Shown: positions 6,008-39,002, counted from the first letter of the stretch. The stretch: 64,000 nucleotides of DNA from an uncultured Candidatus Saccharibacteria bacterium (GCA_964507855.1 CAZDQS010000002.1:27284-91283); one strand, 5' to 3'. The notes: generated from the letters alone by a model not told the origin. Numbers and translations: made by a program.

Positions 6008-6712
6008 ATGAAAATCATCGGTCATAGGGGCGCAGCTGGCCTTGCCCTCGAAAACACAATTGAATCAATCCAAAAAGCACTCGACCTCGGCGTCCACGCC
6101 ATCGAATTCGATGTGCGCTTGACGGCAGACCGAAGACTTGTCCTCTGCCATGACGCTGATCTTGCCCGCGTTAGCGGCGACCAAGACCCGCGCAAAATTA
6201 GCGAACTCACCTCTCAAGAACTCAAAAGCATCAAGCTCCTCAACAGTGAGCACCCACCGCTCTTGCGCGATGTCCTAAAGATTGTCGGTGACACTCCTGT
6301 CATCATCGAAACAAAAGTAGATGATTGCGCGTATGAGTTGCTGGCACTGCTTGATGAGTTCCCGAGCGTCAATGCAATTATCGCCTCTTTCGACCACAAC
6401 GAGATCATACTTATCAAGAGCCTGCGCCCAGACCTACCAGTATTTCTCGCCGAACGCACCAAACCGGTTGAGATAATCCAGCTGGCCCGGGCCATCAAGG
6501 CAGAGGGTGTTGACCTGAATCTCTGGGTGCTTAACCCGCTCACGTACTTCTTAGCCCGCAGAGCCAACCTGACAATCATGGCCTTCACCGCAAACAGTCG
6601 CTTCCTGGTGTGGTTTATCCGACTGTTCTACCCCAAGGTCTGGCTGTGCACTGATTACCCAAACCGCTACCTGCCACGGAAGAGAAGGCGGCGCGCCCGA
6701 AAACCCGCTTAA
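6008..6712 (+). CDS. Glycerophosphodiester phosphodiesterase (GDPD family)
   Basis: MKIIGHRGAAGLALENT (HRG...ENT motif) and EFDVRLTAD. ATG at 6008 chosen over the upstream start in the track. Confidence 0.85.
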   Translation: MKIIGHRGAAGLALENTIESIQKALDLGVHAIEFDVRLTADRRLVLCHDADLARVSGDQDPRKISELTSQELKSIKLLNSEHPPLLRDVLKIVGDTPVIIETKVDDCAYELLALLDEFPSVNAIIASFDHNEIILIKSLRPDLPVFLAERTKPVEIIQLARAIKAEGVDLNLWVLNPLTYFLARRANLTIMAFTANSRFLVWFIRLFYPKVWLCTDYPNRYLPRKRRRRARKPA

Positions 6713-8055
6713 GTAATCCGGCCGTTCTTGTGCAACGAAAAGCGCTCGGTATATATTTTGCGCTTTGGTACACCAAGCTGTGTCAGCTCGCGCGTCACAG
6801 CGTCCATCATCGGCACCGGTCCGCACAAGAACACCTCCCGCTCCGTCGCATCAGGCACCAGACGCTGAATCAGCTCGGCCGTAACAAAGCCCTGCTCATA
6901 ACCTGATTTTTGCTCATCGCTCAAAACATAATGCCGCTTCCGTACAAGCTGCTCCAGCTCATGCTTCAGCGCCACATCATCAGCTGTACGTGCGGCATAC
7001 AGAAGTGCCGTATCAGCATCGCCACCCGCCGCTTGGCCAAGCATTGCCCTGAGCGGCGTTATGCCGATACCACCGGCAATAAAAAGCAGCTTACTTGACG
7101 TTGCCTTCGCCAGTGTAAAGCGTCCGTACGGGCCGTCCACCAGCACACGTGTACCCGGCTTAAGCTGCGGTAATGTCGCCGTATAATCTCCCACCGCCTT
7201 GGCCGACACCCGGAGCCGTCCATCTTGTTGCGGCTCCCACGAGATGGTAAACGGATGCGCCTGCGTCCAGTAACCTTGTGCCAGGAAGCGGAAGATTGCA
7301 AATTGTCCCGCCTGATGCCGAAACTTATCCAAATGCTTTCCCGTAATGTACACCGACACCACCTTCGCGCCGGCCGGTTCAACCTTCTCGACCCTGAAAT
7401 CATGACGCTTGAGCAACCACAAAGGGCGAATAAAGCGAAAGGCAAGGATGCTTACAAAAACTACCGCATATAGCCCCACCCAGTAGTACCGGAACACATC
7501 TTGCTTGATTAAGTCGCCGCCCAAAGTGATTTGGTGCCCCAGCGGCAGCAGTACGCCCGCATACGCCAGCAGATGGACGTAGTACCATGATTCGTACTTT
7601 AAATGCCGCCGGACAATAATAACGGACGTCACAACCACCCCAAGCAACAGCACAAAACCAATAACAGCACCGTTTATAAACTGGTAATTTTCAAGAAAGG
7701 CGAATATTTGCTGGATAAAGGAATTCCGCTCAAATGCACTGTACGCAAGGGTGATCGTCAACACGTGCGTGATAACGAAAACGTAGGCCACCAGACCGTT
7801 GGTCTGATGATGCCGGCTTAAGACATCAAGGCCGAAAACGCGTTCCAGTATCGGCAGGCGGCTCATGAGCAGCAATTGCACGAGCAACAGATAGCCGCCG
7901 ACAAGCGCACACAGGCACGACAGCGCCAGAACCATATCCTCTGGAAACCCGGACCGCAACAAGCCGCCCGAACCCTGCTGCCAGAAATAGAATATGACAA
8001 GGAGGTTTGCAGCAAACGCACCGTACCAGAGGTGTTGTCTTGTTTTGGTGCTCAT
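6709..8055 (-). CDS. Ferric-reductase/NOX-like flavocytochrome (6-TM haem domain plus FAD/NAD(P)H dehydrogenase domain)
   Basis: 448 aa. Two His pairs lie in TM helices (HHQTNGLVAYVFVITH and HLLAYAGVLLPLGH, spacing 13-14). HPFTIS is the FAD motif, GGIGITP the NAD(P)H motif, and CGP is near the C-terminus. Confidence 0.75.
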   Translation of the reverse strand: MSTKTRQHLWYGAFAANLLVIFYFWQQGSGGLLRSGFPEDMVLALSCLCALVGGYLLLVQLLLMSRLPILERVFGLDVLSRHHQTNGLVAYVFVITHVLTITLAYSAFERNSFIQQIFAFLENYQFINGAVIGFVLLLGVVVTSVIIVRRHLKYESWYYVHLLAYAGVLLPLGHQITLGGDLIKQDVFRYYWVGLYAVVFVSILAFRFIRPLWLLKRHDFRVEKVEPAGAKVVSVYITGKHLDKFRHQAGQFAIFRFLAQGYWTQAHPFTISWEPQQDGRLRVSAKAVGDYTATLPQLKPGTRVLVDGPYGRFTLAKATSSKLLFIAGGIGITPLRAMLGQAAGGDADTALLYAARTADDVALKHELEQLVRKRHYVLSDEQKSGYEQGFVTAELIQRLVPDATEREVFLCGPVPMMDAVTRELTQLGVPKRKIYTERFSLHKNGRIT

Positions 8056-31045: not shown

Positions 31046-31279
31046 CATTGTTTTCGATGAATCCGGGGTAGTTGGTTGTTCACTCGATTTTCATTCAAAG
31101 CAATCGAGTAACACTAACTAACTGAATTTATTGCATATCTTTCTCTGTATTCGAGGGTAAAAGCACCGAGAAAGATAGCGGCTTTCTTGCGACAATGCGT
31201 ACCTACAAGGTACGCAGCGAAGCAAAAAGACGATAGCCTTTCCGGTACTTTTGACCGCAGAACAGAGAAGAGGTATGCA
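31046..31279 (+). promoter_or_regulatory. Long structured 5' leader of the DEAD-box helicase gene
   Basis: Three perfect stems read directly: 31082-31089/31102-31109 (8 bp), 31136-31145/31168-31177 (10 bp) and 31196-31204/31208-31216 (9 bp, 3-nt loop). Confidence 0.4.
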
Positions 31280-32506
31280 ATGAATTCAATAAAGGATTCT
31301 TTTTTTATGTATCAATCTACAACTCGCCGTCCTGCACGGCGCATCACTGGCGCGCGCCACTTTGGCCCGAGCCGCAACACCAGACGCAAATCCAATAAGC
31401 AATTTATCAACCCGAGCCGCTTCATTAAGCCAGCGCGGGCAGTGGAGGCTGAGGAATATCAGCCGACACATACGTTTGAAGATTTTGCCGTCCACCCTGT
31501 CATCAAGCAAAATATTGCCGCCAAAGGCTTCAAGACGCCTTCCAAAATTCAGGACGTGGCCATACCGCACGGCCTGGCTGGCAAAGATGTCGTTGGTATC
31601 GCCAACACCGGTACCGGCAAAACGACCGCGTTTGCCGTTCCGGTCATCCACAAGCTGCTCGAGGACAAAAACTCCCGCGCCGTCATCATTGCGCCGACCC
31701 GCGAGCTTGCCGACCAAATCCGCAACGAGATATTCAGCCTCAACAAGGGTTGCAACATGTATTCTGCGTTGCTCATCGGCGGCACCTCAATGTTCCGGCA
31801 AGTACGCGACCTTCAGCGTAAGCCGCACATTATTATCGGCACACCCGGCCGCATGAAAGACCACATCGAACGCGGCAACTTAGATTTAAGCACCGTTAAC
31901 ACCGTCGTGCTTGACGAAGTAGACCGCATGGTGGACATGGGCTTCATCAATGACATCCGCTTTTTACTTGGCAAAGTCGCCCCTGCACGACAATCGCTGT
32001 TCTTCTCGGCAACGATGGACGAGAAAGTTAAAGGCTTGGTGCACAGTTTCTTGAACGAGCCGGTGACAGTTTCTGTCAAGACGGGCGAGACGAGTGACTT
32101 TGTCGAGCAAGATGTTGTCCGTTACGACAGCGAAGCGACCAAGCTCGACAAGCTACACGATGTCCTCATCAGCCAGGCAGCCGCCAAAATCCTGGTATTC
32201 GACGAAACCAAGCGCAGCGTGGAACGCCTCAGCCGCGAACTCGTTGCCCGCGGCTTTAGCGCCGATGCTTTGCATGGCGGCAAAACCCAAGGCCAGCGCC
32301 AACGTGCCCTGAACGCTTTCCGCGACAATAAGGTCAACATCCTCGTGGCGACAGACGTTGCTGCCCGCGGTATTGATATCGCCGACATTACCCACGTCAT
32401 CAATTACACGACCCCAAACACCTATGATGACTACACGCACCGTATCGGCCGTGCCGGCCGAGCAGGCCGTACTGGCTACGCGCTGACATTCGTCTGCGAG
32501 CGGTAG
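31280..32506 (+). CDS. DEAD-box ATP-dependent RNA helicase (motif II is DEVD)
   Basis: PSKIQ (Q-motif), ANTGTGKT, LDEVD, SAT, VATDVAARGIDI, HRIGRAGRAG. ATG at 31280 lies 6 nt after GAGG. Basic N-terminal extension. Confidence 0.9.
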   Translation: MNSIKDSFFMYQSTTRRPARRITGARHFGPSRNTRRKSNKQFINPSRFIKPARAVEAEEYQPTHTFEDFAVHPVIKQNIAAKGFKTPSKIQDVAIPHGLAGKDVVGIANTGTGKTTAFAVPVIHKLLEDKNSRAVIIAPTRELADQIRNEIFSLNKGCNMYSALLIGGTSMFRQVRDLQRKPHIIIGTPGRMKDHIERGNLDLSTVNTVVLDEVDRMVDMGFINDIRFLLGKVAPARQSLFFSATMDEKVKGLVHSFLNEPVTVSVKTGETSDFVEQDVVRYDSEATKLDKLHDVLISQAAAKILVFDETKRSVERLSRELVARGFSADALHGGKTQGQRQRALNAFRDNKVNILVATDVAARGIDIADITHVINYTTPNTYDDYTHRIGRAGRAGRTGYALTFVCER

Positions 32507-32517
32507 TCACCACACAA

Positions 32518-33606
32518 CTAGCCGTTTCGGCGCTTTCGCAGCTCCTCTTCGTTCAGTCCAGCCCATATACCATAGTCCTCTTTATTGGCCAACGCCTGCT
32601 GAAGGCACTGGGCAATAACGGGGCATGAGCGGCAGATAGCCTTAGCTCGCGCTTCACGGCTCTCCCTATCTGCCCTCACTTCACCGGAAACAGGGAAAAA
32701 CAGCCGGGCGGTATACGGATCCCGACATGCCGCCCTTGCCTGCCACTCGGGCGAGAACTCGTGACGTACATTCCGCTGCAGAAACCCCTGCTCTCGCCGG
32801 GCAAGCTCATGTGCTGCAGCCTCGGGCGAGGCCACATCGCTTCGATGCGCGACAAGAGCGGCTCGCTGCTCCGACAGAAGCTTAAACCTGTCTTCCTGGC
32901 CTGGGCTCAAGCCCTTGCCCGCTGTTTCACTCAGCGCAATTTTTGATGCCCTCATACTTTCGGCCTCTCTCATAGACGGCAACTGGCCGCCGTTCAGTAT
33001 GTAATGCATAAAGGCTTCTCTCGCATGATGAAAGCGCGCATCTTTATACGACAGTGTGTGCCTGATATCGTCCACCACAACATCGCTCAATCCATACACT
33101 GTTCTGCTTTTTGTGCCTTCACGCGTTATAGCCGACCGTCCTTCGGTATCAACGATAAGACCCTCCAACTGTCGGATGGATTTACTGAATGCATTCGCCC
33201 GTGCGTCATCCCTCGTTACGTCACTCAAAATCGGATATCGCAAGTAGTGCGATCGCCGCGCAAGGCGCCGTTCAATAACCAATGCCCCAAGAACTTCCGC
33301 GGTATGCTCATTTGGCAATCGATAGACAGTGGCTTCACCGAACGCGACCACATCAGGGCCAACAATCTTCAAGCGCCGAGCTTCGGTGCCGAACTCACGT
33401 GTCACACGTGCATTTACACCCCGTAGCTTGTCTGCAGAAACCAGAGGTATATACACCTCGTCCCTGACATAAGCCGTTCGGCCAACTGAGGCAAGCATCT
33501 CATCATGCAAAGTTCTCGTTCGGCTTTCCCGCTCCTCGCTTGGCACAGCCTCAAGCTGTGACGTACCTGCTGATGGATGCGATATGACCTCTGGCTGGCT
33601 CATCAC
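32518..33606 (-). CDS. WhiB-like (Wbl) Fe-S domain protein with an uncharacterised N-terminal region of about 285 aa
   Basis: C-terminus WQARAACRDPYTARLFFP...AKAICRSCPVIAQCLQQALANKEDYGIWAGLNEEELRKRRNG has four Cys (C..C-x2-C-x5-C), the G-I-W-A-G turn and a basic tail. The first codon is GTG at 33606, with an ATG at 33603. Confidence 0.8.
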   Translation of the reverse strand: MMSQPEVISHPSAGTSQLEAVPSEERESRTRTLHDEMLASVGRTAYVRDEVYIPLVSADKLRGVNARVTREFGTEARRLKIVGPDVVAFGEATVYRLPNEHTAEVLGALVIERRLARRSHYLRYPILSDVTRDDARANAFSKSIRQLEGLIVDTEGRSAITREGTKSRTVYGLSDVVVDDIRHTLSYKDARFHHAREAFMHYILNGGQLPSMREAESMRASKIALSETAGKGLSPGQEDRFKLLSEQRAALVAHRSDVASPEAAAHELARREQGFLQRNVRHEFSPEWQARAACRDPYTARLFFPVSGEVRADRESREARAKAICRSCPVIAQCLQQALANKEDYGIWAGLNEEELRKRRNG

Positions 33607-33716
33607 TAATCAGCTTAACACACCATATAGTCGAAGAATCGTAATTATTACACGCTATGTTCGTAGTATCGCTTCCTTGTCAAAACACGCATTATCGCCT
33701 ATAAAACCTATAAGGT

Positions 33717-34379
33717 ATGGCGAGTGATTCTAAACAATATGAAAGAGCCCTACAAAACTGGGAGCATCTTCACGCTCAAGCGGCTTACAGTGTTCCGCAA
33801 GGAATTGGCCGGACTGCCATACTTTGTTCATACTTTACAGACGTATATTCCCACTACTCACGCTCAGGCCGCGAAAATCAAAGTTACAAAGACATCCGCA
33901 ATTTCCGAAAAGAAGCACTCCAGATTGCAGACGACATCCTGGCCGAAGGCGGCGAAGTGGACGTGGCACTCAATGCGACAGCAGCCGATGCCAAGCGAGT
34001 TCTTCAGGACCCCGAAATAAGTGACATAATCACCATTGGTCACGGAAGTCTTACTCAGCTCTACCTTAACGACACAGCTCAAGAAGGCATACTGCACTGG
34101 ACTGATGTGGCTGGCATGGCTGATCATCTCAAGCGTGGTGACTTTGTCCAGCGACAATGTGGCCATTTCACTATGGGAATTGCACCAGTTCCGCTTGGCC
34201 TGTTTGCCGTTGATGATCACAGACATGTTTTTGCCGCTGTCGGCCAGTACATAGAACCACGCGGGTTACTGCATCCACACAACAAGCTCATAACTCCCGT
34301 AACAGATAGCTGGCGCTTGAGTTATAGAGGGCTGAAAGCAGCCATACAATCGCCTGCACCTGAAATGCAGGATGCTTAG
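33717..34379 (+). CDS. Hypothetical protein (220 aa) with possible caspase-like His/Cys dyad
   Basis: DIITIGHGS ... about 40 aa ... GDFVQRQCGHF: a hydrophobic strand ending in GHG, then a strand ending in Q-C, as in clan-CD peptidases. Tentative. Confidence 0.55.
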   Translation: MASDSKQYERALQNWEHLHAQAAYSVPQGIGRTAILCSYFTDVYSHYSRSGRENQSYKDIRNFRKEALQIADDILAEGGEVDVALNATAADAKRVLQDPEISDIITIGHGSLTQLYLNDTAQEGILHWTDVAGMADHLKRGDFVQRQCGHFTMGIAPVPLGLFAVDDHRHVFAAVGQYIEPRGLLHPHNKLITPVTDSWRLSYRGLKAAIQSPAPEMQDA

Positions 34380-34429
34380 ACACTCCACCACAAGCCGACT
34401 GTACTCTAGGTCTATGTACGTAATGCTGA

Positions 34430-34699
34430 TTATTGTTTTATAGCCGATTCATACCCTGGAAAATACCGGTTTATGAGCGGAAGCTCGAAGACGGGTAGTA
34501 TTGAATCAGGCCCTTCACGCTCCAGCAAGAATTCGAAAGATTTCCGGACTAACTCTGCTGGCAACACCTTACCGCTGGTCAGTTCCAAATAGTAAGCCTT
34601 TGGGACGGCTACGCTGTATTCACGCCCATCGACAGCTACCCGAAACATATAAGTGTCTCTGTTTTCATCTGTCTGAGCAATTATTATGGTATGTTTCAT
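34430..34699 (-). CDS. Hypothetical protein (89 aa)
   Basis: Last gene of the M23 operon. No motif I can name. Confidence 0.5.
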   Translation of the reverse strand: MKHTIIIAQTDENRDTYMFRVAVDGREYSVAVPKAYYLELTSGKVLPAELVRKSFEFLLEREGPDSILPVFELPLINRYFPGYESAIKQ

Positions 34700-34722
34700 A
34701 GCTCTAGCCTAGCAGAATACAC

Positions 34723-35472
34723 TCAAGCAGGATTACCAGATATGAAATCGCGTGGATTGACTGGTGTGCCATTTCGGTGAACCTCAAAATGCAGATGCAC
34801 GCCCGTGGCCATGCCGGTTGCACCCTCCCTGCCTATCTTATCCCCGGCTTTGACCTGTTGGCCTTCCTGAGCGGCCGTAGCCGATAAATGTCCATAGTAC
34901 GACACAATGCCCTCGCCATGATTAATAATCACGTGATTGCCAAGACCACGGCCGGAGTGTATGACTTTCTCAACCGTCCCCGCCCGGAAGGCTCGCACGT
35001 CAGCGCCAGCTCGATTGCCACTCGAGATATCCATACCTGTATGTCGGGCTTGCCACGGCCAGTGCGGCCGGCCAAAATCCGCCGTCACGCGACCACGAAT
35101 AGGCCACACTGCCTCGCCTGCCGGCACAAAAACAGCTGTAGATATGGGAGCAACCGGCGCAGCACCCTCCGGGCTTGAGACAGTAGTCACTGCCGCAACA
35201 CGCCCTGAGCCCGCGGCCCGGTGCCGCATCGCAATCGCCACATCAGCATTGTGTCGCCCCTGCCGAAAAAGCACCGCATCCATAACTGGCAGCAAAATGA
35301 CTATCAGCGAGAGCGCAGCAATGAATATCATCTCCGCCTTAAACTGCTCTAATGTGTCCTGAAAAGCCGCCAAACGCACACCCGTCACCTCCTTACCTGT
35401 CTCATCGTAAAGAAGGTTAAGGGTTCTGGGTGTAAGGAAACACACAGTTTGGGGTGTATATCGTGCCAGCAC
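34723..35472 (-). CDS. M23 (LytM-type) peptidoglycan metalloendopeptidase, membrane-anchored
   Basis: HTGMDISS ... NHVIINHGEGIVSYYGHLS ... GATGMATGVHLHFEV. The track start at 35472 is a GTG. An alternative ATG at 35331 sits just before the TM helix MIFIAALSLIVILLPV. Confidence 0.85.
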   Translation of the reverse strand: MLARYTPQTVCFLTPRTLNLLYDETGKEVTGVRLAAFQDTLEQFKAEMIFIAALSLIVILLPVMDAVLFRQGRHNADVAIAMRHRAAGSGRVAAVTTVSSPEGAAPVAPISTAVFVPAGEAVWPIRGRVTADFGRPHWPWQARHTGMDISSGNRAGADVRAFRAGTVEKVIHSGRGLGNHVIINHGEGIVSYYGHLSATAAQEGQQVKAGDKIGREGATGMATGVHLHFEVHRNGTPVNPRDFISGNPA

Positions 35473-35511
35473 ATTTCTGCGCTGTTATGGATTACATCCT
35501 ATGCCTCCTCC

Positions 35512-35961
35512 TTAGCGGAGGTCGTGGGACAGGGGCGGAGATTGGGGAGCAGGGCGGTGTATTGGTACGAGCATCTCCTCCATCAAAGCCTCCAACTCAT
35601 CATCAAGGGACTCAATATTTGACCGGAAGTATCCTGTGTCTGTTGGTGTGCCATCAATCACTATACGTTTGCTCGCATCCCGCCAGTAGCCACACTGATC
35701 AAACTCGCCTTCGGTCGACAATTCAGGCTGTAAATCAACGTCAAGAATATTAAACCCAACCCTGTAGAGACCATTCTCCTCCTGCGATACCCCGAGGATG
35801 CGTGCCGGCTTCTTGGCTGCCTGTCGCGCACGATTACGTGATCTCAGACTTAACATAAGCAAATGTATTTCGTCCACCATCAGCTCGGCAGGCTGCAGTT
35901 TCTCTGCCTCACCATCAAAATATTCTTGTAGGTCGCAATAGCCAATGTCAAACGAACTCAT
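35512..35961 (-). CDS. Hypothetical protein (149 aa)
   Basis: ATG-initiated ORF between the zinc-ribbon ORF and the M23 gene. No motif recognised. Confidence 0.5.
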   Translation of the reverse strand: MSSFDIGYCDLQEYFDGEAEKLQPAELMVDEIHLLMLSLRSRNRARQAAKKPARILGVSQEENGLYRVGFNILDVDLQPELSTEGEFDQCGYWRDASKRIVIDGTPTDTGYFRSNIESLDDELEALMEEMLVPIHRPAPQSPPLSHDLR

Positions 35962-35998
35962 AATTTTATTATGCCATATTTCGTCAAGTTGTAAAAGA

Positions 35999-36175
35999 CT
36001 AGCGTCTAGGTTTTGAGGAGAGATGGAAACCGGAACAGACGGGGCACTTATAGACGCGTGTCGGACCCCTTCCGGCCCGACCCGGATTGATTTTCTTCAA
36101 CGCCGCTTGAGCAGCAACATCATTCGCGAACCGTTTCTTGCGCTTACACTGCGCGATTTCATTTGCGCTTGGCAT
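35999..36175 (-). CDS. Small zinc-ribbon protein (58 aa), not in the ORF track
   Basis: Own translation: MPSANEIAQCKRKKRFANDVAAQAALKKINPGRAGRGPTRVYKCPVCSGFHLSSKPRR. Basic N-terminus plus the C-terminal Y-K-C-P-x-C-x-G-F-H-L-S-S motif, which I recognise from small actinobacterial and actinophage proteins. No clear SD. Confidence 0.55.
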   Translation of the reverse strand: MPSANEIAQCKRKKRFANDVAAQAALKKINPGRAGRGPTRVYKCPVCSGFHLSSKPRR

Positions 36176-36315
36176 AATTATTCTTATTCTAGCCTATTAG
36201 AGATTGTGGTGTTAGACTTTCCGCTGCACAGTACAGAAGCCAAAACTAGCACTAAGAGCTATGCGGACTGGTGTGGTAATTTATTGGTAGTACAAGTGCT
36301 ACATGAGGAGCCTAC

Positions 36316-36684
36316 ATGCCAAGAAATGGTGAGCTATTCCCGAGCGAAAGTATGAGTGATGCGGAAATAGATCGCATCATTGAGGATGATGAGCGCTTTT
36401 TCAGTTTACAGCCACGCGGTAATTTGGACTCCTATGTTCGTATGAGGCGCAAATTGCTTGGTCCTGTTGCGGATATCACCCATCCTGAGTTCGGCCGCCC
36501 TAACCGTCCCGAGGAAAACTTTTCTATTATTTACCGCGTCCGTGAAATCATCAAGCAGATTGAGGTTACGGGCTTTAATGGACGCAAGGAATACATCGAA
36601 AAGCCTGATTACATTATTGATGAATTCATCACGGATATGGATGGGGATTTTGTCGATTTGGGCCCAGACGCATACGGTGAATGA
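36316..36684 (+). CDS. Hypothetical acidic protein (122 aa)
   Basis: ATG lies 6 nt after GAGGAG. No motif recognised. Confidence 0.55.
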   Translation: MPRNGELFPSESMSDAEIDRIIEDDERFFSLQPRGNLDSYVRMRRKLLGPVADITHPEFGRPNRPEENFSIIYRVREIIKQIEVTGFNGRKEYIEKPDYIIDEFITDMDGDFVDLGPDAYGE

Positions 36685-36783
36685 AGAACGTCATTTGTGG
36701 CTGGCTTCTCTGCCCCGTATTATGCGCACCTTCCTGTCATTCAGATCAGAGAATTCACAAGACTTGATGTAAAATAGTGATTC

Positions 36784-36799
36784 ACTTAACAAGTTAAGT
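36784..36799. promoter_or_regulatory. 16-bp palindrome ACTTAAC-AA-GTTAAGT (copy 1 of 2)
   Basis: Perfect 7-bp arms, with a second copy 73 bp away. Confidence 0.45.
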
Positions 36800-36856
36800 T
36801 AATTATTTGTAACTAGTCATTGCCCCAACTTATTAAGGTTCTCCATTCAACAGTAT

Positions 36857-36872
36857 ACTTAACGTGTTAAGT
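36857..36872. promoter_or_regulatory. 16-bp palindrome ACTTAAC-GT-GTTAAGT (copy 2 of 2), overlapping a TATACT -10-like hexamer
   Basis: Perfect 7-bp arms. TATACT at 36854-36859 overlaps the left arm. Confidence 0.45.
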
Positions 36873-36987
36873 TTTAGTATCTCTAGAAGGTATGCCTCAG
36901 CATCAAAAATAAATTAACGGGGATTACTAACATTGGCTTCATGGTGAAGTTGTCTTTTTCAGACCCAATGTGTTCATTCCCCGTCTT

Positions 36988-37020
36988 CCCCGGCGGCCGC
37001 CACATTTCTGGCCGCCGGGG
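36988..37020 (-). terminator. All-GC 11-bp hairpin 29 nt downstream of the lipoprotein gene (no U-tract)
   Basis: CCCCGGCGGCC (36988-36998) pairs with GGCCGCCGGGG (37010-37020). Confidence 0.4.
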
Positions 37021-37048
37021 GCATAGCCCACGCTCTCTCCCTGCTCGA

Positions 37049-37369
37049 TCACCGGGCTGACGCGCCTCCGCCGAGCAAGATCCCGGCACCGAGCACGAAC
37101 CCGAAGTCATACCAGTTGCCGTTGTTGTGCACCTCGTAGATGCTCACACCATCCTCGAACAGCGAGATGATGAAGGTGAACGGCGAGATGAACCCGTGCC
37201 AGAGCCCGTACAAGAATCCAGCAGGGTCACCAGTTGCATCAGCGGTTCCAACCGCGGGATTGGGGCCAGCCGCGCATCCAGCGAGCAAAAACACCAGCAC
37301 GATTGCCAGCACTGCATACTGCTTGCGATGCACTACTACCTCCAGAGGGGCATCCATGGGATTCGCCAT
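37049..37369 (-). CDS. Putative lipoprotein (106 aa), GC-rich cassette
   Basis: Lipobox VFLLAGCAAG after a TM-like signal, plus a C-terminal hydrophobic Gly-rich segment. Much higher G+C than the flanks. Confidence 0.6.
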   Translation of the reverse strand: MANPMDAPLEVVVHRKQYAVLAIVLVFLLAGCAAGPNPAVGTADATGDPAGFLYGLWHGFISPFTFIISLFEDGVSIYEVHNNGNWYDFGFVLGAGILLGGGASAR

Positions 37370-37499: not shown

Positions 37500-37937
37500 C
37501 TATTTGATGAAGAGGGTGAAGTACGGGAGCTTGTCTAAGCCTTCATAGCGGAACATCCAGTAGTTGGCTCGCCGGGCTGATTCTGAGAGTTTGTACTTTT
37601 TGAGATTTTTCTTAGGGACAAAAGGGTAGAATTTGATTTCTTGCCTTTGTACGTCTTTTTCTGTCCACTTAAAGTTAATGATAAGCGGCGGAGTAATGAA
37701 GCCGGATTTAAGTACCTTGTCCATAATGTCCCAGCCAGCACCTAAGATACTAGCTTTAGGCTTAGAATTAATTGACTTTATTTGCGCCCGGAAGCTACAG
37801 CCAGAACACTGGACATCAAAAAGAGGGTAACTTGGCGGCAACAGCATCAATGCTTTGCCACAGTTCGGACATGGAATCAAATCCACCACCTCCCGTTCGC
37901 CAGCATCACCAAATTGCTTGTTGAGTCCCATTATCAT
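37500..37937 (-). CDS. DpnI-like (Dam-replacing family) PD-(D/E)XK nuclease domain protein, lacking a C-terminal winged helix
   Basis: IPCPNCGKALMLLPPSYPLFDVQCSGCSFRAQIKS ... ILGAGWDIMDKV ... LSESARRANYW aligns, from memory, with DpnI CPNCG...PVADFYCNHCSEEFELKS...INDGAYATMMKR...APTARRAGW. ATG at 37937 chosen, since the longer track ORF would overlap the next gene. Confidence 0.55.
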   Translation of the reverse strand: MIMGLNKQFGDAGEREVVDLIPCPNCGKALMLLPPSYPLFDVQCSGCSFRAQIKSINSKPKASILGAGWDIMDKVLKSGFITPPLIINFKWTEKDVQRQEIKFYPFVPKKNLKKYKLSESARRANYWMFRYEGLDKLPYFTLFIK

Positions 37938-38000
37938 AATTAGATCATGAACAGCTCGTCGGAAGCAAGGAAGCATCAGTGATATGGTATCTTTAGAAGT

Positions 38001-39002
38001 ATGAAAGAGGTACTTTATTACCTGTTCGTGATCACAGCCTTCGTCGCTATGGTGGCGTTTTTTGTGGGGTTGGTGCGGCCCTGGAAGTTCCGGCGAATCT
38101 TGGGTAGTAAAGCCACTCGTCGGCACATTGCGCTCTACAGTTTTGTCTTATTCATGTTCTGTGGCATCATGTTTGGCATTTTTGAGCCAGAGAGCGTCAA
38201 GCAAGCACGCATAGAGCGCGAACACCAGGCGCAAATAGCCGAACAACAAAAGCTTGATGAAGAAAAACGACAGCAAGAGGAAGAAAACCGTCGTCGACAA
38301 GAAGCAGAAGAGACCGAACGAAAGGAAGCCGAAGAGCAAGCAAGACGAGCCGAGGAAGAAGCCAGAAAAGCAGCCGAACCGGTGGCCGTAGCGAGTGTCA
38401 TTGACGGCGATACCATCAAAGTGCACATTGATGATGATATTGAGTCAGTACGACTTGTCGGGATAGACGCGCCCGAGACATTCAACTGCTACGGCGATGA
38501 AGCCAAGCAAGCACTAACAAGCATATTGGAGGGCCAGAAGGTTCGCCTAGAAAAAGACGAGCTCCAGGGCGACCGCGATAAGTATGACCGCCTGCTGCGA
38601 TTTGTTTTCCTGGAAGATGGCACGCCAGTTAGTGAAAAACTGCTGCGCGATGGATTAGTGTTTGAAAAACTATTTACTAGCAAACCACACAAATACCATG
38701 ATGCATTCGTAAAAGCCCAGGAAGAAGCCAAATCTGCCCAGCGTGGTCTGTGGTCACCCACCACGTGCAACGGCACATACTCGCCCGTCCCACCTCCGGC
38801 ACCGTCTCCTGTCCAGAGCACGCAGACTCCAGCACCCGCCCCTAAGCCTGCTCCTGCCCCGGCGCCAACGCCCGCCCCAAGCACGGCCTACTACAAGAAC
38901 TGCACCGTTGCTCGACAAGCTGGCGTAACTCCCCTATATCGTGGCCAACCTGGCTACGGCTCACACCTTGACCGCGACAACGACGGCATCGCTTGCGAAT
39001 AG
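38001..39002 (+). CDS. Membrane-anchored thermonuclease (SNase) with coiled-coil, Pro-rich linker and Excalibur Ca-binding domain
   Basis: N-terminal TMs and an E/K/R coiled coil. SNase core VIDGDTIKV...VRLVGIDAPE...DKYDRLLRFV...RGLWS. PAPAPKPAPAPAPTPAP linker. C-terminal YYKNCTVARQAG...DRDNDGIACE. Confidence 0.88.
   Translation: MKEVLYYLFVITAFVAMVAFFVGLVRPWKFRRILGSKATRRHIALYSFVLFMFCGIMFGIFEPESVKQARIEREHQAQIAEQQKLDEEKRQQEEENRRRQEAEETERKEAEEQARRAEEEARKAAEPVAVASVIDGDTIKVHIDDDIESVRLVGIDAPETFNCYGDEAKQALTSILEGQKVRLEKDELQGDRDKYDRLLRFVFLEDGTPVSEKLLRDGLVFEKLFTSKPHKYHDAFVKAQEEAKSAQRGLWSPTTCNGTYSPVPPPAPSPVQSTQTPAPAPKPAPAPAPTPAPSTAYYKNCTVARQAGVTPLYRGQPGYGSHLDRDNDGIACE

Follow-up and report, generated by a model that had tools for sequence, protein, structure and literature searches.

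Two nuclease genes lie back to back in the 64,000-nucleotide (nt) stretch of DNA considered here (GCA_964507855.1 CAZDQS010000002.1:27284-91283; hereafter the window), which comes from an uncultured Candidatus Saccharibacteria bacterium. One encodes a small protein resembling the restriction endonuclease R.DpnI of Streptococcus pneumoniae, and the other encodes a membrane-anchored thermonuclease with SNase and Excalibur domains. The locus raises the question of what so small a DpnI-like protein does and whether the nuclease beside it takes any part in that function. A first-pass annotation of this DNA had regarded the DpnI-like protein as truncated, its catalytic motif as a Q-x-K variant, and the pair as a possible module for recognizing methylated host DNA and degrading it. 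Our analysis points elsewhere. We consider it fairly probable that the protein is a stand-alone nuclease of restriction, probably directed at Gm6ATC (GATC containing N6-methyladenine, m6A), and that it resides in a variable defense island. The features that bear on this reading are given below.

37500..37931, including the stop codon, minus strand: DpnI-like gene; 143 amino acids (aa), a single-domain PF06044 PD-(D/E)XK nuclease into which a zinc ribbon is inserted
37776..37898, minus strand: predicted catalytic and zinc core, from alignment to DpnI and conservation in 77 sequences
37896-37898, minus strand: codon of E12, which aligns with DpnI E25 (helix)
37869-37871 and 37860-37862, minus strand: codons of C21 and C24, which align with the first CXXC of DpnI
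37815-37817, minus strand: codon of D39, which aligns with DpnI D53
37806-37808 and 37797-37799, minus strand: codons of C42 and C45, which align with the second CXXC of DpnI
37776-37784, minus strand: codons of Q50-I51-K52, which align with DpnI E64-L65-K66
37554..37589, minus strand: loop L115-S-E-S-A-R-R-A-N-Y-W-M126, equivalent to the methyl-cleft loop of DpnI, from profile alignment to 4esj

Fold and active site of the DpnI-like protein

The window protein matched Pfam family PF06044 (DpnI / Dam-replacing) at 36.6 bits (E 4.5e-9; gathering cut-off 26.7 bits) over profile positions 30-151 of 183, and the same assignment was precomputed for most of the 120 homologues listed. When the PDB was searched with a profile of 30 family members, the top match was DpnI (4esj; E 0.002). 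The family profile, run against 1.84 billion representatives, reached longer relatives of 254-330 aa (E about 1e-9 to 5e-7), each of them above the PF06044 cut-off. An AlphaFold2 model of the protein (pLDDT 83.5) contained no additional domain, and Foldseek placed it closest to DpnI among PDB structures (4kyw_A; E 4.4e-7, TMq 0.74, 141 columns), with the next, unrelated folds at E of 0.05 or thereabouts and higher. The PADLOC model for methyl-directed type II enzymes, mREase_II, also matched the protein (E 3.8e-5), and no significant Pfam match to an Mrr-type family was found. Because a pairwise phmmer comparison with DpnI alone was weak and not significant on its own (E 0.36), it is the profiles and the structure that confirm the likeness. 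Membership in the DpnI family, with the DpnI fold, is nearly certain. A profile search against this family and a structure prediction had been proposed in the first-pass annotation; both agree with the fold and zinc ribbon that it described, and the strings that it quoted (CPNCG, PLFDVQCSGCSFRAQIKS, and ARRANYW) are present in the open reading frame (ORF).

No winged-helix domain was found in the protein by Pfam or in the AlphaFold2 model, as had been noted before, and the chain stops 19 residues past the methyl-cleft Tyr. Because the winged helix is absent and the canonical E-x-K does not occur, the protein should not, from its sequence, be filed as a DpnI orthologue. It is a Q-x-K variant without the winged helix, and public records already carry the automatic annotation "DpnI domain-containing protein."

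Its length had been taken as a sign of truncation. In a word-based search with clusters formed at 90% identity, at least 1,372 clusters share the form of approximately 143 aa, those with a taxon name being spread over many lineages of Patescibacteria, and the best 120 matches, which were listed, are 70-83% identical to the window protein. Codon analysis of 77 genes gave a median pS of 0.80, which is saturated, and a dN/dS of about 0.11 or less. Because so many clusters share this length and dN/dS is so low, the 143-aa form is the full-length architecture of the family under strong purifying selection; together with the saturated synonymous sites, these values also dispose of the alternative of a pseudogene fragment.

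Residue conservation was counted in 77 family sequences from different species. E12, C21, C24, D39, C42, Q50, and K52 are invariant (77/77), and C45 is present in 76. The pairs C21-x2-C24 and C42-x2-C45 flank D39 as they do in DpnI and form a predicted zinc site. The canonical E-x-K position is Q50 in every sequence, with E12, D39, and K52 all present; the first-pass annotation was correct that Q-I-K stands where DpnI has E-L-K. A reading of this difference as a noteworthy lesion did not hold. Q-x-K was also found in 8 of 9 more distant relatives (149-270 aa) with an ARRAGWQGF-type motif, and all 5 of those tested against PF06044 were above its cut-off. Because Gln is invariant in the family and recurs in these relatives, Q-x-K is a fixed family trait. 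HinP1I (D62/Q81/K83) and MspI (D99/N117/K119), both active monomeric enzymes, also have Q or N for the second acidic residue. The Gln is a conservative change known as well from the Mrr catalytic domain, whose motif is itself named PD-QXK (PMC11037411). That the window protein is an active nuclease is likely.

In the methyl-cleft loop, L115, R121, and Y124 align opposite DpnI L129, R135, and W138, and M126 replaces G140; the first three are kept in 75 of the 77 sequences. In DpnI, L129, R135, W138, and G140 form a cleft that accommodates both m6A methyl groups, and W138Y, W138H, and W138F variants have partial activity; Tyr or His occurs naturally at this position in homologues, including those of Neisseria (PMC4117772). 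We give m6A/GATC specificity of the window protein an even chance.

GATC, distribution, and genomic neighborhood

The earlier statement that no methyltransferase is adjacent holds: none was found by Pfam in the ten flanking ORFs (33.7-41.5 kb), and tblastn with D12, N6_N4, type I HsdM, type III Mod, and C5 methyltransferases gave no match in the 64-kb window. Nor did the window show any GATC-specific system. Among the 16 palindromic tetramers, GATC is the one most strongly avoided there, with 140 sites observed vs 249 expected under a second-order model (observed/expected ratio, O/E, 0.56), and the next most avoided is CTAG (O/E 0.77). Rusinov et al. (2015) reported that GATC is under-represented in 38 of 42 genomes with DpnI-like type IIM enzymes, and that sister strains often have DpnII-like systems, comparable to the complementary pneumococcal DpnI and DpnII.

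When one genome for each species was scanned with patterns, the DpnI-like family was matched in at least 147 of 185,579 species representatives, a count that is a lower bound. So sparse an occurrence points to an accessory gene that is patchily distributed. Neighborhoods were compared in the best 80 loci of the 147 carriers, with ORFs called by a crude longest-ORF heuristic that makes neighbor counts approximate. The titles of these loci name Patescibacteria lineages (Saccharibacteria, Paceibacterota, and Buchanan-, Magasanik-, Kaiser-, Berkel-, Kerfeld-, and Levyibacteria). Thirteen carry other titles, namely Gammaproteobacteria, archaeon, "ainarchaeum," or Omnitrophota (L011, L012, L015, L023, L026, L027, L033, L035, L056, L070, L073, L028, and L038); since their proteins are 65-73% identical to that of the window, wrong labels or contamination of the bins are the probable cause.

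Among 146 immediate neighbors in 76 loci, the Pfam families seen included ResIII (10), SWI2_SNF2 (7), Eco57I methyltransferase (5), N6_Mtase (4), HSDR_N (4), DUF2726 (4), AAA_21 (4), and MmeI_Mtase (3). The neighbors are mostly restriction-modification (R-M) and defense genes, which is a defense-island signature. Both stand-alone status and a defense neighborhood are therefore observed: no methyltransferase was found in the window, and neighbors rich in R-M and defense genes occur across the 76 loci. Individual settings vary. In L084, a lone Tsp45I endonuclease gene is two genes upstream of the DpnI-like gene, and in L087 a type III Res/Mod pair adjoins it. L044 has TdeIII with a D12 methylase and an HNH protein with an N6_N4 methylase upstream, and a Panacea/SocA protein downstream. 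L071 has an AlwI-family (PF09491) R-M system at 3 kb, and in L085 the gene is in a housekeeping setting between UvrB and GatCAB.

All-vs-all clustering of approximately 900 neighboring ORFs from the 80 loci found no conserved partner gene. HsdM was the commonest neighbor, in 11 of 80 loci and at varying positions, and was rejected as a constant partner; so were a 232-aa HNH protein, which is absent from the window, and a recurring "ORF cluster 6," which includes a window gene and consists of ordinary ArsR-type regulators.

The 232-aa protein follows the DpnI-like gene directly in 5 loci of one clade (L016, L019, L029, L031, and L046). Its gene is at 6420-7118 in both L019 and L031 and overlaps the DpnI-like gene by 4 bp in both. 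The protein has a C-terminal HNH motif, with a weak Pfam match on the HNH part only, and an N-terminal domain assigned to no family. It is approximately 80% identical between loci, and in that clade the two genes may thus form a unit. Divergent relatives of the DpnI-like protein show other fusions: P0128 (245 aa; E 4e-8, above the cut-off) and P0243 (254 aa; E 3e-5, just below) have a C-terminal HARE-HTH domain, and the very divergent P0209 (211 aa), which is without Q-x-K, has an FtsK-gamma winged helix (7.6e-9). Some divergent relatives thus carry other DNA-binding modules in place of DpnI's own winged helix.

Two origins for the gene were considered and rejected. There is a local dip in GC (47% at 36-38 kb), from which recent horizontal transfer might be supposed. 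The third-position GC (GC3) of the gene is 52.4%, matching the window GC of 52.6%; gene GC3 follows flank GC across 77 loci (r = 0.74); and synonymous sites are saturated. These results rule out recent transfer, and the low overall GC of the gene is an effect of amino acid composition. A phage origin was rejected after IMG/VR viral contigs were scanned with the family patterns and gave no relative.

The adjoining SNase-Excalibur gene

The second gene and the other features around the pair are as follows.

38001..39002, plus strand: SNase-Excalibur gene; 333-aa membrane-anchored thermonuclease
aa ~1-28 and 42-66 of its product: hydrophobic segments, from hydropathy windows >1.6 starting at aa 1-10 and 42-48
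aa ~67-125 of its product: charged stretch rich in Glu, Arg, and Lys, from the sequence
aa 150-252, nt 38448-38756, plus strand: SNase domain PF00565 (E 6.5e-19; 68.8 bits vs cut-off 21)
Between the SNase and Excalibur domains, plus strand: Pro-rich linker
aa 298-333, nt 38892-38999, plus strand: Ca-binding Excalibur domain PF05901 (E 4.7e-16; 59.3 bits vs cut-off 22)
37932..38000: spacer of 69 bp separating the two divergent start codons
37049..37369, minus strand: 106-aa hydrophobic ORF, in the same direction as the DpnI-like gene and 130 bp downstream of it
31187-32506: CshA-like DEAD-box helicase gene of the window

The spacer depends on where the DpnI-like gene starts. The minus-strand ORF terminates at 37500 and has candidate ATGs at 37931 (143 aa) and 37937 (145 aa). 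Nearly all homologues among the best 120 listed have 142-145 aa, and their N-termini read M-(x)-GLNKQ, which makes ATG 37931 the most likely start; the spacer to the plus-strand gene is therefore 69 bp, not 63 bp. The divergent arrangement given by the first-pass annotation stands, with 143 aa and 69 bp replacing its figures of approximately 145 aa and 63 bp. On the Logan contig L081 the DpnI-like gene is identical and is called at 143 aa. The NCBI product is 158 aa (P0391; 37500-37976), 15 residues beyond the family's 143 aa, and its start would shrink the gap to the SNase start codon at 38001 to 24 bp; this annotated start is probably too far upstream. The 69-bp spacer presumably holds both promoters. 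Scans of 36.9-39.2 kb for sigma-70-like consensus sites and for terminators gave counts no higher than in shuffled sequence and no site in the spacer. No tRNA or tmRNA genes, and no Rfam families at gathering score, were found in the 64-kb window.

The first description of the SNase protein holds. Its layout comprises transmembrane segments, a charged stretch, an SNase domain, a Pro-rich linker, and an Excalibur domain. The motifs DGDT, R-x4-D-A-P-E, and DKYDR are readable in it, and we take these to be the catalytic-residue motifs of SNase by comparison with staphylococcal nuclease. There are 210 homologues at E <= 1e-10, with Patescibacteria, Bacillales, and Actinomycetes among the named taxa, and sources name them "thermonuclease family protein" or "endonuclease YncB." The NCBIfam match to thermonuclease NucI (1.2e-24) is below its equivalog cut-off; judged by the NCBIfam equivalog cut-offs, the protein is not an orthologue of NucI or EcnA. 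The coding region 38001-38999 also matches PADLOC PDLC01096 "SNc+LTD," a model for a candidate defense system (E 5.8e-31), in the nuclease domain only, which is probably shared SNase homology and nothing else.

The pairing of the two genes was followed from both sides. An SNase homologue lies within 6 kb of the DpnI-like gene in 3 of the 80 loci, 2.4-5.5 kb away and adjacent in none, and near three close relatives of the DpnI-like protein (L084, L085, and L087; tblastn identity 79-84%) there is no SNase. From the SNase side, the closest retrievable homologues were treated as orthologues. In L082 (52% identity) the DpnI-like gene is adjacent, upstream, and co-directional, not divergent. In L083 (45% identity), a D12 Dam-like methylase, an N6_N4 DpnA-like methylase, and a DpnII-family endonuclease are encoded directly downstream of the SNase gene (L083:1299-6339); next come a 95-aa ORF and the gene of an AAA/TOPRIM nuclease of the OLD family. 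The order of this cassette is that of pneumococcal dpnM-dpnA-dpnB. C5-methylase genes are directly downstream of the SNase gene in L089 and approximately 1.2 kb downstream, past two hypothetical genes, in L088; one further orthologue has only hypothetical genes as neighbors. The L083 cassette loosely fits a picture of DpnI/DpnII alternation. It is downstream of the SNase gene and the DpnI-like gene of the window and L082 is upstream, so that the two occupy different sides, and neither L082 nor L083 is a close strain of the window organism.

In L090 the helicase orthologue (59% identity) is 1.3 kb from the SNase gene; in the window the distance is 5.5 kb, and the segment between holds small ORFs without Pfam matches, an M23 peptidase gene, and the DpnI-like gene. 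The stretch 32518-37369 (ORFs of 220, 89, 149, 58, 122, and 106 aa without Pfam matches, and the M23 peptidase) looks like a variable inserted segment. Its 106-aa ORF had no Pfam match, clustered with no gene of the 80 related loci, and recurs only on the identical-strain contig L081; it is part of the same variable segment as the DpnI-like gene and no conserved partner of it. The SNase gene, in turn, seems to be a stable part of the chromosome, with flanks that gather different restriction systems in different relatives. Because these flanks vary and the pairing is not co-conserved, the adjacency is positional, and the DpnI-like gene is very likely independent of the SNase gene in function. 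The first-pass annotation had itself named a lack of co-conservation as grounds for rejecting its reading.

Candidate functions and comparison with known systems

The window protein would most likely act as a modification-dependent nuclease of type IIM/IV-like character, the methyl-directed (type IIM-like) function that the first-pass annotation had also proposed. As a complete cytoplasmic zinc-ribbon PD-(D/E)XK endonuclease with a predicted metal site formed by E12, D39, Q50, and K52, it would bind duplex DNA in the manner of the DpnI catalytic domain, read adenine-methylated GATC-like sites through the L115/R121/Y124 cleft, and nick each strand in turn, presumably as a monomer acting sequentially. 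Incoming phage or other foreign DNA with Dam- or DpnII-type methylation would be destroyed. DNA of the cell itself, being unmethylated, would escape, and therefore no cognate methylase would be needed. The variable defense island would simply happen to border the conserved chromosomal SNase-Excalibur gene, with no functional module between them.

Several observations weigh against this account. Glu64 of DpnI, replaced by Gln here, directly ligates the metal of site 1; the equivalents of N48 and R126, further residues with which DpnI reads DNA, are N, S, or G and K, N, or M, respectively, in the 77 sequences; and the DpnI winged-helix domain, an independent reader of Gm6ATC, aids binding and specificity by crosstalk between domains, the loss of which could alter behavior. 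GATC avoidance is moderate when the 80 related loci are pooled (O/E 0.80; only one of the 16 palindromes is lower) and also appears in four SNase loci on whose short contigs no DpnI-like gene was seen, so it is supportive yet not specific to carriers. AlwI recognizes GGATC. The AlwI-family system 3 kb away in L071 and a D12-class adenine methylase 1.5 kb away in L044 could, if their methylases modify GATC on both strands, conflict with Gm6ATC cutting. The main unexplained feature is conservation, which is far above what is usual for restriction enzymes: in shared genome pairs the median identity is 69-70% for the DpnI-like protein, 43% for DnaX, and 28-35% for type I/III R-M proteins. Of its 143 columns, 38 are invariant and 73 at least 90% conserved among 77 species. 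Its identity correlates with that of DnaX (Spearman 0.58, p 2e-4), which suggests that inheritance has been vertical to a substantial degree and change very slow. In L084, a close relative, identity to the window is 84% for the DpnI-like protein, 78% for an MgsA-like ATPase, and 50% for a purine DNA glycosylase.

Because slow evolution of this kind is atypical for restriction enzymes, a role outside defense stays among the rivals. A housekeeping-like protein, whether a conserved DNA or methyl-DNA reader or a nuclease in repair, in the processing of recombination intermediates, or in the discrimination or processing of imported DNA, would explain why change is slower than in DnaX, and it is consistent with the many invariant columns, the largely vertical descent that the DnaX correlation suggests, the lack of copies in IMG/VR viral contigs, purely housekeeping loci such as L085, and the Holliday-junction resolvase Hjc as a weak structural neighbor in Foldseek. 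However, a core function would be expected to be near-universal within its lineages, and the gene is sparse, has no conserved partner or operon, shifts position even among close relatives, and has neighbors dominated by R-M and defense genes; such a role is unlikely. A lineage-specific, slowly evolving methyl-adenine (GATC) reader or nuclease with a cellular role in the candidate phyla radiation (CPR), for example in telling self from host or imported DNA during uptake or recombination, would likewise explain a protein more conserved than DnaX, and we hold it to be unlikely. The Gln itself raises the prospect of a protein without catalysis: as a weaker ligand than the Glu of DpnI it could abolish metal binding and leave a factor for methyl-GATC or another site, such as a regulator or an accessory to the complete R-M systems that the gene often adjoins, and the conserved DNA-contact loop would suit such a factor. 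Invariant E12, D39, and K52 alongside Q50 would be unexpected if catalysis were lost, however, and the named Mrr motif, the corresponding D...Q-x-K of HinP1I and D...N-x-K of MspI, the Q-x-K of distant PF06044 relatives, and the fact that no single R-M type is constant as a partner make a dead binder improbable.

Two further explanations concern the genes nearby. If the protein were an orthodox, methylation-sensitive type II enzyme cutting unmodified sites, the methylase that protects the cell would have its gene at another place in the genome or, in some loci, next door; methylase genes do occur within a few kb in L044 (an N6_N4 methyltransferase immediately upstream), L071, and L087 (type III Mod), and genomes that have orthodox GATC systems typically avoid GATC as well. 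Most loci, the window included, have no solitary methylase nearby, and those methylases that are nearby mostly stand beside their own candidate endonuclease (TdeIII, the HNH protein, AlwI, or type I/III Res). Since both DpnI and Drg, the closest characterized relatives, depend on methylation and the protein keeps the methyl-cleft residues, we find this quite improbable. The module of the first-pass annotation, in which the DpnI-like protein would recognize methylated host DNA and work with the extracellular SNase-Excalibur protein to harvest nucleotides for an epibiont, draws on the divergent, closely spaced genes in the window, on the renewed adjacency in L082, and on the fact that both products are nucleases. 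Against it stand the rarity of SNase genes near DpnI-like genes, their absence from the three close relatives, the changed orientation in L082, and the DpnII cassette, C5-methylase genes, or unrelated genes that flank SNase orthologues elsewhere. The DpnI-like protein also has no signal peptide and no hydrophobic segment by sequence hydropathy and would be cytoplasmic; the SNase protein is anchored, with an extracellular-type Excalibur domain, and would be in a different compartment. A new host-DNA scavenging module is not supported, and we regard it as highly improbable.

Should the reading as a stand-alone, methyl-directed nuclease be true, no natural DpnI-type enzyme would be smaller than the window protein, a catalytic domain of 143 aa without the winged-helix reader. 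It would bear on how a catalytic domain alone gains m6A specificity, and enzyme engineering would have a use for so compact a nickase or cutter of Gm6ATC. It would also point to DpnI-type and DpnII-type GATC systems both circulating among related CPR bacteria. The slow evolution is a small puzzle for a defense gene.

Among known systems, the SNase protein resembles the SNase/Excalibur thermonucleases of the Bacillus YncB type in its SNase domain with readable Ca-site and catalytic motifs, C-terminal Excalibur domain, and N-terminal membrane anchor, and differs in its long charged spacer and Pro-rich linker. For the DpnI-like protein, the Mrr-type domain (PD-QXK, type IV), HinP1I, and MspI are alike in having Q or N for the second acidic residue and still being nucleases; they belong to different families without a zinc ribbon, and Mrr has an N-terminal winged helix. 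The short Q-V-K relatives of the ARRAGWQGF type (~150-160 aa; for example P0222, P0226, P0233, and P0250) also lack the winged helix and have the CXXC pairs. They keep an R-A-G-W-x-G loop that is more DpnI-like than that of the window family, and their profile E values are about 1e-6 to 1e-9, vs 1e-30 or better for closer relatives. Drg/NmeBII, the "Dam-replacing protein" of Neisseria and founding member of PF06044, is in the same Pfam family. It has been described as a GmeATC-specific endonuclease on a cassette insertion with GC below that of its genome, and its patchy distribution has been attributed to transfers; the GC3 of the window gene, in contrast, is ameliorated to that of its surroundings.

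R.DpnI (4ESJ/4KYW; type IIM, Gm6ATC-dependent) is the closest comparison. DpnI has 254 aa, with a catalytic domain of residues 1-182 and, at the C terminus, a winged helix; the window protein has 143 aa, no winged helix, and a shorter tail after the methyl-cleft loop. Identity in structural alignments is about 21-23%, Q50 stands in place of E64, and the N48 and R126 equivalents are not conserved. The window family is found in Patescibacteria, not in Firmicutes or Neisseria, and evolves unusually slowly. A related organism with a DpnII-type cassette loosely echoes the alternative DpnI/DpnII cassettes of the pneumococcus, although on opposite sides of the SNase gene. The likeness to DpnI is in the fold; in the unusual zinc site, where one CXXC stands between the Glu of the helix and the Asp of "PD" and a second between that Asp and (E/Q)xK; in the equivalents of E25, D53, and K66 and of L129, R135, and W138, the last as Tyr; and in a stand-alone gene without a methylase in a host genome that avoids GATC.

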